Source: Curvularia clavata (taxonomy: Eukaryota). Taken from it: a DNA stretch of 64,000 nucleotides. Under the pieces are notes generated by a model. The model was not told where the DNA came from and made no database searches. It was given only the letters and a program-made list of their open reading frames with translations. The stretch spans positions 1,488,001 through 1,552,000 of the forward strand of contig CP089279.1 of the NCBI GenBank assembly GCA_023920165.1, read 5' to 3'. Position 1 is the stretch's first letter. Each line of letters begins with the position of its first letter. Made by a program: the position numbers and the translations under genes. Of the stretch, positions 1,216 to 31,540 are shown one piece after another.

Positions 1216-2061
1216 ATGTCCGCCAACTCGCTGAACAAGATCGCGCCCAACAGCCCTTCCAGGCAAAACCCCTCTGAGATCGAGACCAGCATCGCCAGCG
1301 CAAGTCATCCCGTTCAATTGTGGGCACTGGTGGCAGCAGTACTAATATGCCCGACAGGCGTTGACTGACCTCGAGAACAATGTTCCCGACCTGAAGGCTT
1401 CTCTGCGCCCTCTGCAGTTTGTCTCTGCTCGCGAGGTATGAAGAACCCGAACTCGTTCACGATGCGCTCTCGAGCGTCGCCTGCACATACACCCATACCC
1501 TACAAATTCGAAGAGGCGGTGGGCACTGGGCAGCAACAAGAGCTGACACCAGGATTCTTAGATCGAGGTTGGCCACGGACGCAAGGCTATTGTCATCTTC
1601 GTCCCAGTTCCCCTTCTCTCCAACTGGCACAAGGCCCAGCAACGGTATGCTTTCTTGCACGTGCGCTAGTATGGCTCTTACTAACAAGCTACAGCCTCAC
1701 CCGTGAGCTCGAGAAGAAGTTCTCTGACCGCCACGTCCTGATCGTTGCTTCCCGCCGCATTCTCCCCCGCCCCAAGCGTTCCAACCGCTCCCGCACTTCC
1801 CAGACCCAGAAGCGTCCCCAGTCGCGAACTCTCACTGCTGTCCACGACGCTATCCTGACCGACCTCGTCTACCCCGTCGAGATTGTTGGCAAGCGTCTCC
1901 GCACCCGTGAGGACGGCAGCAAGATCCTCAAGGTCGTTCTCGACGAGAAGGAGCGCGGCGGTGTTGACTACAGGCTCGACACCTACAGCGAGGTCTACAA
2001 GCGCCTCACTGGCAAGGGTGTCAACTTCGAGTTCCCCCAGAGCCAGCAGACCGACTACTAA
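1216..2061 (+). CDS. RPS7: 40S ribosomal protein S7 (eS7)
   Basis: Exons 1216-1299, 1358-1435, 1562-1644, 1695-2061. Motifs [81 protein letters not shown]. Strong C-ending codon bias. Intron 1 has a GC donor. Confidence 0.97.
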
Positions 2062-26489: not shown

Positions 26490-29400
26490 GCAGCATCACG
26501 AACATGACCGCTCAACAAGGGAGATAGATGCTTCTCTTGGGTGGCTTTTCGATTCTCTTCTTCTTTAGGTGACAGGGCGGCTTGGAGACCATACAACACG
26601 CGAGGCGTATTTATCAATTGCGCTGGTTCGGAACTATTTTCACTTCTCTTTTGTATCTGTACATGATACTCATATCCTGGTTACATTCCCTGCTCACACT
26701 AGGGCGCAGTACTATAGGATTTTACTATCTCTCTCTCTAAGTTAGTACCACTGCGAATTACAGATTTACGAGTTCATGAGCCAACCCTCTGCTTTTGCCT
26801 ACTATGTCCTTGGTTACCTCACCCCCTTTCCCTTGAGTACTATTATGGTGATGACAGCAATAGATAGCCAGCCGCTCTCGCGACCGATCGACACCTTGTC
26901 TAGCTGTTGAGCGAACCATTTTACATTTCGTGCTACCCTTAGCAGATGGACCCGTCACCCAGACTAACAATAGCCACCAAACCTAAATTGGCACAGCCAC
27001 AAGGACGATCCCTTTCCCAATCAAACGCAGGTCCAACACATTAATACGAGCCGCGACCTAAAGAGGAGGGAGGGGGGCTAAGAATGCATCCAGCTAAAAA
27101 TCCATCCCGGGCTGACTTTCTCGTCAGCAAATTCCAAAATAAAAAAGGAACGGAGATGAGGCCCGCTGTAGGCAATTCGTATGCTGCTTACCGCCCCCCC
27201 TTCTCTCGTATTCCCCTGGGCGGGCGTGGCTGCGCGTTCCTGCCTTAGTGGATTTGCCGCACCGCTTCGCTATGCATCCGGTTGCCTCGTCCAGCCTAGA
27301 TCGGTCTTGGGGGGTGGCCTCTTCTCAAGACGACCCCTAGCCCTACTCGCTGGCTCGTATCTTATTTCTTGCTTGAAGACGGAAAAGTGTCACTTTGGCG
27401 CCTCTTGTCTCCTATACTACTCAGGTACCCGGAGTCACGTTGGAATCATTGTCACAAGCTCAGCTGAAGATGGGAAAGGCTGGCGCGCAAATTAAGGTTT
27501 CCCTTCTTGCGTTGTGGAGGCGAATAGAGCGAGTGAGTGAATGAGTGGCTGCTGCGATGCGCGCACAATGTGCGTGTGCTGTTCGGCATGGTGCAGCGCA
27601 GATACGCAATCTTTCGTAGCCACAATCACATCTAGAATCTATGCCGAGTGATCCGAGATTTTGTGTGCATGGTCGCTACGTACTTTGTGGCCCGGGGAAG
27701 CACAGGGAAGAGGGGCGCGTGTGGGAAGGCAAGGGGGCCAATTCTACGCCCCGTGCGAGGTATGTAACGGTAGGGAAAGGCACACGACAAGCCCACACTT
27801 GGCTGAAAACTTGATCTCGCTTAGCTGTGCTTCCTGGTTGTAAATCAATTTTTCTTCTCTTCATCTGCCTGCGGCGCTCTCTCTATCTTGGCCTTCGTGA
27901 TGAGATAATCTACACTACAATTGGCTGACAGGGAACGGGTAGGTGAAAAATCGTTGGTGTCGGATGTGACGCGCACGTCGCAATTTCCTTTATTCCCTAA
28001 CAACTACCCGATATCGTAATGATGAGTTGTCGGCTCGGTGATTTTGCGGGCCATGGGGGTGTTGCAAGGCAGGCAACCAAACGAGGTTCTGGACCTTTGT
28101 TTATCTCGAAAAGTTTTTTTGCGCGCATATAATAACAAATGGGTGGCCCGGTGGAGACGTACTTTCAGTTGAGGGTCTTGGGTCCTCGATGAGCAAATCT
28201 CAGTGTCGGTTTGGCGAATACCTGTAGCGTAGCGTCTGGGCACACTGTGCGACGGCGGTTGCAAATGCAAGGTACACAAACAAGTTATTAAGAGGATGCC
28301 TGTATGGGCCCACTGCTGGTGCAGTGGGCTGTGGGATGATGTGCTGGAGGAATTGGCGAGAGATCGATCGAGAATCACAGAGCAGAGCGATGGATACGTT
28401 CGCACGTGGAATACTGCTCGTGCTCTGTTTCCACCCTCGACTCGAGGTCTGGAATGCGGCGTTGTATCCGCAGTGGTCTGACAACGCTCCCTTACCTCTT
28501 GGCCCCGACTTTGCTACGCGCCGGCTCATCATCCGCGCTGACTTTCGCGGAATATTCGAAGCAACCGTCTTTGTCTCCATCTAGTCCATGCGCGACGTTT
28601 ACCCGTTACCCAACTATATGCTCTCGAGAAGCAATCATGCATCTGTTCATTTCCAACGCTCATCAACGGACACCAAGAAGCAAATGCCGTACCTAGGTAC
28701 TACTGGCAAAGCCAGCCTGTGAGCCCTCGGACCCCAGAGCCCCGATCTTTGTCCAAAGTCGCAAAGACCTCACCGAGGTGCGAGGCTCCTCTATACGACA
28801 ATGCACCGCCACTGCACCGAGGGCTCGCGTTCAAGAGCGCCTTGATCCGCATCACACTGTAAATAATAGAAACACGCTCCTGGGGCCGCAGCATCGTCTC
28901 GGTCCGTAGAGCTTCTGTATGTCTGAGGGACCTGCGCAACACCCATTCCTGATGCAGATGCATATTCCCCATTTAGGCAATTTTTGGAATCTAAATGGAG
29001 ATACGACGGAGATTCAGTGATCCTCTAATACCCAGGCGGTGTATGAAAGATTATTCAACAGGACTTTTGCTGTTCGGCGTCTCCACTGGAAGTCGGTGTG
29101 CAATGCACATTTGTTGTGCTGTCGACTCGCGCCTTGAGTCGCGAAGACTTGGTCGGGCGGTGTGCGAGAGGTGAAACAAAGACCGAGTGTCTCCGTTTCT
29201 ACGTCTGAGTCGTCTGCTACGTAGGGGTCGAAGCGCCGACTGGGAAAGACGTCATTAGTACTGACTATATACAAGCGCCAACTTGTACTGTTCTCCTAGG
29301 CGAACGTGGTGTCTTCGCAGATTGATGTATATTAGATCGGGTGTTCTTTTGGCTTGTTAATATGAGGCGCATGCGGCATGAAGGTCGACTATATCTTGTA

Positions 29401-29783
29401 AGATGAGTTGAGATGAGAAGAAGAGTACGGGGGCTTGTTGTACAGGCACACCTAGCTACTACCAGCGATAGAGTATGGGGCTCAGGAAATCGAAGAAATA
29501 GGAATTAAAAAACCCAGCGAAACTATTCGCATTCCAGGTATACGTACTTTGGCAAGAATGCGTCGGTTCAAGGTCAGGTGGTCCTCTCCGTGGCAGAAGA
29601 CGATATTTTGTTGGTTTAATATAGTAATATTAACGTGGATAAAAGAATAGTCGAAACACTTCGGTAGCAGAGTGTATAGTTAAGAATAGATGTCATCCAA
29701 AGCAAAGAATATGAAGATATTCAATTGTCGTTGAACTCTAGCACATGAGGGTCACAATTAGTGTTGTCCTCTCCTCAATACAA

Positions 29784-29822
29784 GAGTACCTTGATATCAA
29801 TGTGCAAGCCAACAGGGTACTA
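29784..29822. promoter_or_regulatory. Pair of putative ZafA/Zap1-type zinc-responsive elements upstream of RPS29
   Basis: 29784-29798 on the minus strand reads GATATCAAGGTACTC (14/15 to the recalled A. fumigatus ZafA consensus DYYVYCARGGTVYYY). 29808-29822 on the plus strand reads GCCAACAGGGTACTA (13/15). A third CAAGGT core lies at 29569-29574. Confidence 0.55.
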
Positions 29823-29841
29823 CTACTACTACTACTACTAC
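29818..29841. repeat. (TAC)8 microsatellite in the RPS29 promoter
   Basis: Read directly from the sequence. Confidence 0.9.
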
Positions 29842-29997
29842 AGCCACCACCAACGGCACAAACCAGCAACCACACGCACACAGAAGACCAATATTCGTGC
29901 CGTCTGCCAAAAGGAGAAACAAAAACTTCCCAAACCTACATATATCACACCTCATTTCCACACCTCACATCGACTACATCACGCAGCCAAAGCCACC

Positions 29998-30445
29998 ATG
30001 TCCCACGAATCCGTCTGGTACTCGCGCCCGCGAACCTACGGCAAAGGCTCTCGAGGCTGGTGCGTCTTACCCGCATCCTCACTTCTTTTCTCAGTGCCTC
30101 TCTTTTTATGGCCCATCGCACTTCCCTCTCCATCCGGTTCATCTATCCATTTCACATAGCAACACACATAGCTAACCCGTCACCCAAAACCCAGCGTCGT
30201 CACCGGTGACAAGAAGAAATCCGGTATCATCCGCAAGTATGGGCTTAATATGAGTCGTCAGGCATTTCGGGAGAAGGCGCAGGATATTGGGTTCATCAAG
30301 GTATGTGCGTTTTTTTTTTTCACGGAAGAAAGCGAGAAAGGGAGAGCATGTGTGAGATTGAGAGAGGGTGAGGAGGAAGAGACGGCGGGGTCGTGTACTG
30401 AAAAAAAGGATCAAGGCTAACGGGTTGCTGAAATAGTATCGATAA
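29998..30445 (+). CDS. RPS29: 40S ribosomal protein S29 (uS14), zinc-finger-less variant
   Basis: Exons 29998-30059, 30195-30300, 30437-30445 (canonical GT-AG introns with CTAAC branch points). Spliced protein (58 aa): [58 protein letters not shown]. Confidence 0.95.
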
Positions 30446-31540
30446 AGGCCATTTCGAACGTGTGCGATCGGGCGATGATGATGGTCATGAGTGGTTGCAT
30501 ACATACAGAAACAAGGGCGCTAAATCGATGAAATGGACGGGTAAGGAAAAGAGGAAGTTACTATCTGATGACGGAGGGATCATGCTCTATTCGTATGAGT
30601 CAGATGTACTCTGGAATTATCACCGATCCTGTGTACTCTGAATCCATTCCACCCCTTGGGTATTCCAGTCCTAGTGAAGTTCTTTTCTCACATTCGTTCA
30701 ATTGCATTGATGCACAAGTCCTAGTCAATATGGAGGGTGCCTAAAATCCACGACGTCGTGTCTGCTGTATTCATTAGTGAGGCCGTGGACGGCACGAAAC
30801 TCGCGGAGGGCCGTTGGAGTTTGTTAGGCGAATCGGCTGTTGAGTGGCTGTCTCTGCGATCTTAATGACCTTGGTTGTGACGACGTCTTCATCATCCCTA
30901 TTGATCTGTGCAATGGATATGAGCCTACCAAAATTGCCTGAAATGCTGCTTGGCTCCTCGTACATCTTGAAAAAAAGAGAATACATGTGCTTGGTAAGTC
31001 TTGACATAGCTTTCGTCGGATGTCAAAAGGAAGAAATGAAAAGTGAACAAAGCTAGATGAGCAAGGCAAGCACTAGATGTATCAAATAATAAACAGGGTG
31101 CGAAAGGTGAACGAAAATAGAAGCCGCATGAGAGTGCGTACCATCAGTAGACAAAAGTATGCTCCTGCCGAATACCGTTCTCCCTAATGTACCATGTACA
31201 GATTTTTGTTCTATCACAGTAATCACTTGAGAATAAATGGCACTCCTGCCACTTGGTTCGTTCATGGCAATCGAAAGTCCTGTTCTTTGCTAATCTTTCA
31301 GACTAGAGAGACTGTATTTCTGTATCCAACTATCTGGGTGCAGTCCCCATCTTACGAAGGGTGCATTATCTACAAACACTTTACAAACCTGACTGAGTCG
31401 CAGTCATCTACGTGATCATAGTCTAAACAAAAGCGTCAGCCAAATCAAGTCAACCGTTTACATTAATAAATCTATTTCGATTTTGTATCTACACCCATGC
31501 TATGCAAAAATATATTAATCCAATCCCGCAAGCGAAAAGC

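Follow-up and report, generated by a model that had tools for sequence, protein, structure and literature searches.

A zinc-ligand-poor paralogue of ribosomal protein uS14 in Dothideomycetes, with candidate ZafA/Zap1-type sites in its promoter

Zur-regulated, zinc-free (C-minus) paralogues of ribosomal proteins are well known in bacteria; RpsNB of B. subtilis (S14*, formerly YhzA) and the alternative ribosomal protein (AltRP) operon of mycobacteria are examples, and C+ and C- ribosomal proteins were reportedly treated by Makarova et al. in 2001. The gene considered here lies at 29998-30445 (+) of a 64,000-nucleotide stretch of the genome of the fungus Curvularia clavata (assembly GCA_023920165.1, contig CP089279.1, positions 1,488,001 to 1,552,000 of the forward strand; the whole stretch is referred to as the window). 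It encodes a cytosolic 40S protein of the family to which RpsNB also belongs, uS14 (RPS29), in which three of the four zinc-ligand cysteines have been replaced. On balance, this Cys-poor gene is probably a Zap1/ZafA-activated, zinc-independent fail-safe uS14, and a eukaryotic analogue of B. subtilis RpsNB. (The form of the protein that retains all four ligands is called 4-Cys in what follows.)

Late in zinc starvation, B. subtilis derepresses RpsNB, a zinc-independent S14 that keeps ribosome assembly going when the zinc-requiring S14 cannot be made (passages of PMC5007448). For eukaryotes, the methods section of a paper on Encephalitozoon cuniculi states that some ribosomal proteins have two genes, one zinc-coordinating and one zinc-free (PMC8807834), and in the accessible part of a 2026 survey the CxxC of uS14 is listed as conserved across eukaryotes and a C+/C- pair is named only for bacteria (PMC13090322). 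In yeast, Rps29 is required for late processing of 20S pre-rRNA, the last cytoplasmic step of 18S maturation (PMC12397909). The motif of the Aspergillus fumigatus zinc activator ZafA is a 15-bp sequence, DYYVYCARGGTVYYY, whose CARGGT core is essential and which is active within 1.2 kb of the start codon (passages of PMC6070888). Neither a zinc-free fungal uS14 paralogue nor a ribosomal protein in a fungal zinc regulon was found described in full-text searches of openly available papers, and the main text of a proteome paper on zinc starvation in Fonsecaea makes no mention of ribosomal proteins.

By sequence, the window protein is a member of the uS14 family despite its missing zinc ribbon. A profile of eight Cys-poor proteins (alignment A1) finds eukaryotic uS14 ribosome chains in the PDB with E-values down to 5.5e-28. 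Exon 2 alone matches Pfam PF00253 (Ribosomal_S14) with an E-value of 9.5e-6 and 25.7 bits, just below the 27-bit cut-off, which the full-length orthologues P0015 and P0022 pass with 37.9 and 41.8 bits (4-Cys forms score 45.7 and 42.9); the score against NCBIfam NF004424 is 50.8 bits, below the 54-bit cut-off of that family. All the rRNA-facing conserved blocks of uS14 are kept in the alignments of the Cys-poor form. What is absent is the CxxC...CxxC zinc ribbon of the archaeal and eukaryotic short form. On alignment to solved fungal uS14 chains, the zinc-ligand columns of the window protein read C, T, S, A, those of 7olc_Sd and 7r81_e2 read C, C, C, C, and the Lys-rich loop that follows the second ligand is 2 residues longer than in the solved 4-Cys fungal proteins.

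The gene, read directly over 29500-31000 of the window, is intact and has three exons (coordinates in the Table), which give 177 nucleotides (nt) and 58 residues when spliced by script at these coordinates. RNA evidence comes from public runs that hold the stretch; four were used, from three studies, two being recorded as metatranscriptomic RNA. Each of the four yields one contig, 517-581 nt long and with 0-4 mismatches to the window, and in each contig the two predicted introns, of 135 and 136 bases, are missing to the base, with GT..AG ends. Transcription and splicing of the gene therefore agree with the model, and since the skipped bases end exactly at the predicted joints, splicing leaves the lost cysteines unrestored. 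(What such contigs attest is presence, and neither level nor growth condition; their depth cannot rank expression.) An earlier reading of this DNA, made from sequence only, had claimed an intact spliced gene with its key residues in a 106-nt exon, and a protein with only the first Cys left (C24 to T, C39 to S, C42 to A) and a 2-residue insertion in a Lys-rich loop; the sequence, the RNA contigs and the structure-chain alignment bear out both claims, and the different splicing or lack of expression that this reading had named as evidence to the contrary is found in none of the four runs.

The case for control by zinc rests on the promoter. In the window gene, a zinc-response (ZR) motif with the CARGGT core lies within 1.2 kb upstream of the start codon, and does so twice, in inverted orientation (sites 1 and 2 of the Table). 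These two are the only pair within 100 bp among 16 such sites in the 64-kb window. The sequence CANGGTACT has two matches in the whole window, both in this promoter; two or more matches are also found in 37 of 100 shuffles, so that it is the placement that counts and not the number. For comparison of orthologous promoters, 80 metagenome loci were fetched with the Cys-poor profile, of which 29 are fungal spliced orthologues; with the window included, 27 loci have at least 300 bp of upstream sequence (L005, L062 and L070 are too short and were dropped), and by upstream similarity these 27 form 15 groups. In 12 of the 15 dereplicated promoters, one or more sites with no more than 2 flank mismatches are present at -250 to -80. 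The density of sites in this interval is 20-fold higher than elsewhere: its 2550 bp hold 18 sites (7.1 per kb), as many as are spread over the other 53,635 bp of these loci (0.34 per kb). The usual arrangement is an inverted pair, a minus-strand site followed 27-65 bp on (start to start) by a plus-strand site, with the sites lying 100-215 bp upstream of the ATG. Among the 80 loci, 14 fungal ones have such a (-,+) pair ahead of the ATG, and the 50 that are not fungal have none.

Conservation of sequence in these promoters is consistent with this picture. Over -280 to -60 their median pairwise identity is 44%, which makes them unalignable, yet two islands, AGTACCnTGAT and CCAwCAnGGTACT, are conserved in at least 80% of rows. 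A count of 6-, 7- and 8-mers that is blind to the motif places pieces of ATCAAGGTACT first at every length, the top words being GGTACT (12/15 promoters), CAAGGT (11/15) and ATCAAGGT (9/15). The upstream region of the eS7 gene of the window, which serves as the negative control (n=1), has no pair of proximal ZafA-type sites. (At the alignment position of the (TAC)8 repeat of the window, a short run of TAC is also present in L003 and L072.)

The following sequence of events is proposed. In zinc-replete cells, the 4-Cys protein would supply the 40S subunits. As zinc falls, an activator of the Zap1/ZafA family would bind to the inverted pair of CARGGT sites that lies ~190-215 bp upstream of the ATG, and would turn on the Cys-poor gene, whose product, with T, S and A in place of three ligands and with its Lys-rich loop extended by two residues, would occupy the place of uS14 in new pre-40S particles. 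Late maturation of 40S subunits would then not be stalled by lack of zinc (the fail-safe, which comes first), and one zinc would be saved per new ribosome (the sparing, which comes second). The longer Lys-rich loop may stand in for the zinc knuckle by way of extra contacts. The low-zinc switch and the entry into pre-40S particles are proposed on the analogy with B. subtilis RpsNB and on the role of Rps29 in yeast. An alternative ribosomal protein for zinc limitation is also what the sequence-only reading had in mind, and the conserved pair of ZafA/Zap1-type sites speaks for it; binding of the factor to the element, induction at low zinc, incorporation into ribosomes, absence of zinc binding and the part played by the loop are all inferred.

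A number of points weigh against this assignment. Orthologous promoters are related by descent, so that counts of sites in them are not counts of independent events, and 3 of the 15 have no canonical core (L001 and L010 have the islands with CACGGT-type variants, and L063 has neither). The ZafA motif was defined in Aspergillus, which belongs to another fungal class than the Dothideomycetes, and the control for the motif consists of one negative promoter, that of eS7. Because the RNA contigs are cut at the (TAC)8 repeat, the start of transcription is not fixed, and the sites could be close to transcribed sequence or within it. For the genome of the window, a 4-Cys RPS29 is a prediction made from its relatives. 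Structure prediction by AlphaFold2 on the 8-sequence alignment A1 is uninformative (mean predicted local distance difference test score, pLDDT, 52; predicted template modelling score, pTM, 0.37). ZafA can repress as well as activate (section 3.8 of PMC6070888). Finally, the spliced transcript is present in all four RNA runs, and this is compatible with constitutive expression.

The last of these points favors the strongest of the alternatives, in which the gene is a divergent uS14 paralogue that is constitutive or serves some other condition (development, stress, host colonization) and is not controlled by zinc, the promoter element belongs to another factor, and loss of the cysteines is neutral or confers redox robustness. 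That uS14 with a single ligand Cys is apparently part of the ordinary ribosomes of two yeasts (taken up below) implies, in the same direction, that a zinc-free uS14 need not be conditional. On the other hand, the words most conserved in these promoters are the core of the ZafA motif with its preferred flanks, concentrated at -250 to -80 and wanting as a pair upstream of eS7. Moreover, the Cys-poor form is the less constrained of the two, as would be expected of a back-up: in 55 of 55 species pairs drawn from 11 species with both forms (Hortaea left out), its identity is lower than that of the 4-Cys form (mean 77.5% against 90.7%), which fits a conditional copy kept beside a housekeeping one. 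Constitutive expression, or expression under some other control, is thus regarded as unlikely, if worth keeping in view.

The zinc-responsive fail-safe that is preferred here presupposes a second uS14 gene, and the distribution of the two forms bears on whether there is one. The exon was searched for with a 40-residue query from the window, five codons of which derive from intron sequence, and 49 proteins matched; the exon is Cys-poor in all 49, each without ligands 3 and 4, which argues that it is not a chance open reading frame (ORF). The source names of the matches are Dothideomycetes, and range from Pleosporales (Alternaria, Bipolaris, Pyrenophora, Parastagonospora, Coniothyrium, Paraphoma and Aaosphaeria) through Mycosphaerellales (Ramularia, Septoria and Zymoseptoria) and Botryosphaeriales (Lasiodiplodia) to Pseudovirgaria. 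The window protein is 95% identical to the Cys-poor protein of Alternaria alternata over 56 columns, which, together with the synonymous divergence given below, places its source no more closely than as a Pleosporales-like fungus. Searches were made for both forms, and the best 120 of 917 matches to the Cys-poor profile and the best 120 of 458 matches to the 4-Cys query (P0147) were listed. Among the matches listed, with ligand patterns read for each sequence, both forms occur under one species name in at least 12 species: Pyrenophora tritici-repentis, Parastagonospora nodorum, Paraphaeosphaeria sporulosa, Paraphaeosphaeria minitans, Pleomassaria siparia, Zopfia rhizophila, Lasiodiplodia hormozganensis, Neofusicoccum parvum, Saccharata proteae, Hortaea werneckii, Salinomyces thailandicus and Venturia inaequalis. 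At the level of the genus they also occur together, again among the matches listed, in Alternaria, Plenodomus, Pseudocercospora and Diplodia.

A second alternative, that the Cys-poor gene is the only uS14 of this genome, as appears to be so in the two yeasts with solved ribosomes, draws on the one-Cys sequences of those structures for a precedent. It is very improbable: coexistence in 12 named Dothideomycete species argues for a pair of paralogues in the lineage and not for replacement, and 4-Cys genes are on record in the genera nearest by identity (Alternaria infectoria, Pyrenophora teres, P. tritici-repentis, Curvularia kusanoi and Exserohilum turcicum). The word paralogue, which the sequence-only reading had used, is thus justified for the lineage by 12 related species with both forms, and for this particular genome by extension from them; the Cys-poor variant which that reading proposed to look for in other fungi is found across the Dothideomycetes.

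Variation within the Cys-poor form extends to the first ligand, which is Tyr in Zopfia rhizophila (P0093), and to the third, at which Venturia inaequalis (P0064/P0072) keeps Cys. Two Cys-poor proteins are recorded outside the class, from Exophiala spinifera (P0073; Eurotiomycetes, Chaetothyriales) and from Xylariales sp. (P0071). These could mean that the duplication is older than the class, or that there has been transfer, or that the records are mixed. Database models of RPS29 in Pezizomycotina, of both forms, very often read through intron 1 or intron 2 (P0004, P0005, P0013, P0017, P0054, P0078, P0094, P0151 and many others), which results in wrong C-termini or internal inserts and helps to explain how the pair has escaped notice. 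The 4-Cys models read through after the same Lys that precedes intron 2 of the window gene, suggesting that this intron position is common to both paralogues. One protein labelled as 30S S14 of a Rhodobacteraceae bacterium (P0110) is in fact the 4-Cys RPS29 of a fungus, its core being the same as in Botrytis fragariae, and the records of the plant Corymbia citriodora include both of the fungal forms (P0060/P0181); fungal contamination of those assemblies is the likely explanation.

The Cys-poor gene is under strong purifying selection. The 56-codon coding sequences of the window and of 14 dereplicated metagenome loci make 105 pairs; exclusion of the 14 pairs that involve the truncated L009 leaves 91, of which 86 have a usable rate of synonymous substitution (dS). 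In these 86 pairs the ratio of nonsynonymous to synonymous substitution (dN/dS) has a median of 0.098 and a maximum of 0.323, at a median dS of 1.19; between the window gene and every metagenome orthologue dS is ~0.9 or more. The GT of intron 1 follows codon 20+2 in 15 of 15 orthologous loci, and of the 14 loci that extend as far as intron 2, 13 have its GT donor at the corresponding position. The one locus that lacks it, L041, is a more divergent fungal orthologue in which the last codons are directly continuous; it has one ZafA-type site, with 1 mismatch, at -180. That the gene is a duplicate on its way to loss, or has taken on a non-ribosomal (moonlighting) role, would accord with its evolving faster than the 4-Cys copy and with the occasional loss of even the first Cys (the Tyr of Zopfia), but is the least probable of the alternatives, and hardly credible, given so low a dN/dS at saturated synonymous sites, the intact frames, the constancy of intron positions, the splicing and expression of the gene, and the retention of every rRNA-facing block.

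An origin of the Cys-poor gene by duplication within fungi, and not by transfer from bacteria, is supported by its N-terminus, its introns, its nearest relatives and a uS14 tree. The tree has 118 rows and 56 columns, and comprises 95 database proteins chosen from the matches listed, the window protein and 22 metagenome-locus translations (rows P0089, P0097, P0051, P0140 and P0211 were dropped). All 39 fungal Cys-poor rows form one group, with a Shimodaira-Hasegawa-like approximate likelihood-ratio (SH-aLRT) support of 99, which lies inside the fungal uS14 group (SH-aLRT 89) and apart from the marine Cys-poor groups that are described below. When the ligand and loop columns are removed, the remaining 46 columns do not resolve the tree: 7 changes are needed for the Cys-poor rows, and the approximately unbiased test does not reject one clade (p-AU 0.24). 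The evidence for a single fungal origin is therefore the full alignment, together with the insertion and the introns held in common, and not independent columns. The resemblance to bacterial zinc-independent S14 had been read earlier as convergence rather than horizontal transfer, and the fungal N-terminus, the positions of the introns and the nesting within fungal uS14 agree with that.

Loss of zinc ligands from uS14 is not confined to this lineage. Two distinct uS14 sequences in solved ribosomes, 3j80_d (17 entries) and 9axt_Aj (3 entries), have only the first ligand Cys, with S or T followed by G at ligand 2, D or S at ligand 3 and S at ligand 4; their organisms are presumably Kluyveromyces lactis and Schizosaccharomyces pombe. 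The presence of these chains in structures implies that a eukaryotic uS14 poor in zinc ligands can be a component of the ribosome, and a zinc-free uS14 has apparently been in the structural data already, unremarked. In addition, zinc ligands are missing from two groups of uS14 genes without introns, which are among the 80 fetched loci and come from marine and other metagenomes. Group i (L011-L024, L029-L033, L037-L038, L045-L046, L050-L051, L053, L056, L059-L060 and L074) has Cys at ligand 1 only or at ligands 1 and 4, T-G at ligand 2, K at ligand 3 and a 2-residue loop insertion of its own; group ii (L043, L052, L057-L058, L064, L067, L071, L073, L075-L076 and L079) has no loop insertion. A search of 1.84 billion proteins has further members of group i among its 150 best representatives. 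(The long N-terminal "extensions" of database models of these marine proteins are unconserved read-through in front of an internal Met.) The starting premise of the sequence-only reading, that eukaryotic uS14 binds zinc, is thus too broad. Taken together, the marine groups and the one-Cys structure chains show that loss of the uS14 zinc site in the form C-x-x-T/S-G is recurrent in eukaryotes.

A wider proposal, whose chances seem evenly balanced, combines these strands. The Dothideomycetes would, since an ancient duplication, have kept a Zap1/ZafA-activated zinc-free uS14 as a fail-safe for the 40S subunit in zinc starvation, the first eukaryotic counterpart of the Zur-controlled alternative ribosomal proteins and one with a different regulator; eukaryotes would have lost the uS14 zinc site repeatedly as an adaptation, further instances being two yeasts and two abundant marine groups, where zinc is scarce. 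If this is true, metal-driven remodelling of the ribosome extends to fungi, a ribosomal target joins the fungal zinc regulon, and ribosome heterogeneity acquires a clean natural case for which the selective reason is plain. Because fungi are denied zinc by their hosts, the Cys-poor gene could mark zinc stress during colonization; the Dothideomycetes are a class with many plant-associated fungi. The hypothesis is directly testable in tractable species that carry both genes.

The surroundings of the locus can be dealt with briefly. In one RNA run (X6), a 1076-nt contig covers 29400-29512 and continues upstream beyond the stretch that was examined. A scan for ORFs and Pfam domains over 27500-29500 gave no convincing ORF or Pfam match. 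This contig may represent an unannotated or non-coding transcript that shares with the Cys-poor gene the ~340-bp intergenic region in which the zinc-type sites lie. Of the ORFs scanned, whether close to the locus or in the rest of the window, none is a zinc transporter or COG0523 gene. The RNA contigs of the Cys-poor gene halt near 29856-29886, probably on account of the (TAC)8 repeat.

Table. Features of the Cys-poor uS14 gene and its upstream region, and the eS7 gene used as control (window positions)
Feature	Position	Strand	Description and evidence
Candidate ZafA/Zap1-type zinc-response site 1, GATATCAAGGTACTC	29784..29798	-	1 flank mismatch to DYYVYCARGGTVYYY; -214 from ATG; aligns with conserved promoter island
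Candidate ZafA/Zap1-type zinc-response site 2, GCCAACAGGGTACTA	29808..29822	+	2 flank mismatches; -190 from ATG; inverted relative to site 1; conserved promoter island
(TAC)8 microsatellite adjoining zinc-response site 2	29818..29841	+	Window sequence; skipped repeats, with reads apparently cut, at 29810-29855
5' untranslated region, minimum extent	29856..29997	+	Contigs start at 29856, 29865, 29881 and 29886; true start not defined by contigs
Exon 1, coding part	29998..30059	+	ATG ... GGC TG; 20 codons and TG of the Cys21 codon; sequence, translation, RNA contigs
Intron 1	30060..30194	+	135 nt; GTGCGT ... CTAAC (branch site) ... CAG; joint in 4/4 RNA runs
Exon 2	30195..30300	+	106 nt; third base of Cys21, loop with T at ligand 2, 2-residue insertion, S at ligand 3, A at ligand 4
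Intron 2	30301..30436	+	136 nt; GTATGT ... GCTAAC ... TAG; sequence and RNA contigs
Exon 3, coding part	30437..30445	+	TAT CGA TAA (Tyr, Arg, stop); sequence, splice, RNA contigs
3' untranslated region, extent of longest RNA contig	30446..30715	+	Contigs end at 30651-30715
eS7 gene	1369..2061	+	Ribosomal_S7e, E 2e-50

Comparison with known systems places the gene as follows. It shares with 3j80_d and 9axt_Aj the retention of the first ligand only; those chains are without the 2-residue insertion, and are modelled in ordinary ribosomes, apparently as the main form of the protein and not as a second copy. We know of no link between the uS14 of those chains and regulation by zinc. RPS29A and RPS29B of S. 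cerevisiae are likewise duplicate fungal uS14 genes, but both keep the zinc site (they are "+Zn" in the accessible part of PMC13090322, and chains 3j6x_29 and 4u3m_D9 are among the PDB matches) and they are 91% identical to one another, whereas the Cys-poor and 4-Cys forms are 63-78% identical within the 11 species compared. Microsporidia provide a eukaryotic precedent for pairs of this kind; the passage on E. cuniculi names neither the protein nor its regulation, and it was the zinc-coordinating isoforms that were seen in the map (PMC8807834, in that passage). With the ZafA regulon of A. fumigatus (zrfA, zrfB, zrfC/aspf2 and zafA) the gene has in common the 15-bp ZR motif with its CARGGT core, of which genes of that regulon often have several copies, no more than a few hundred bases from the start codon; in the passages of PMC6070888 consulted, no ribosomal protein is reported in the regulon.

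There is also a likeness to B. subtilis RpsNB and the other C-minus paralogues. The protein family, uS14, is the same, the ligands have been lost from one of two paralogues, a site for a zinc regulator (here a candidate) is located in the promoter, and the zinc-free copy is proposed to sustain ribosome assembly when zinc is scarce (passages of PMC5007448). The fungal gene differs in that its product is a cytosolic 40S protein of a eukaryote, of the short type (56-58 residues), in having introns and in its fungal origin; so far, only uS14 is known to have such a copy here. Its candidate regulator is an activator of the Zap1/ZafA type acting at CARGGT sites, and not the Zur repressor. Thus, the protein family and the logic are those of the bacterial systems, and what differs is the domain of life, the origin and, as a candidate, the regulator.

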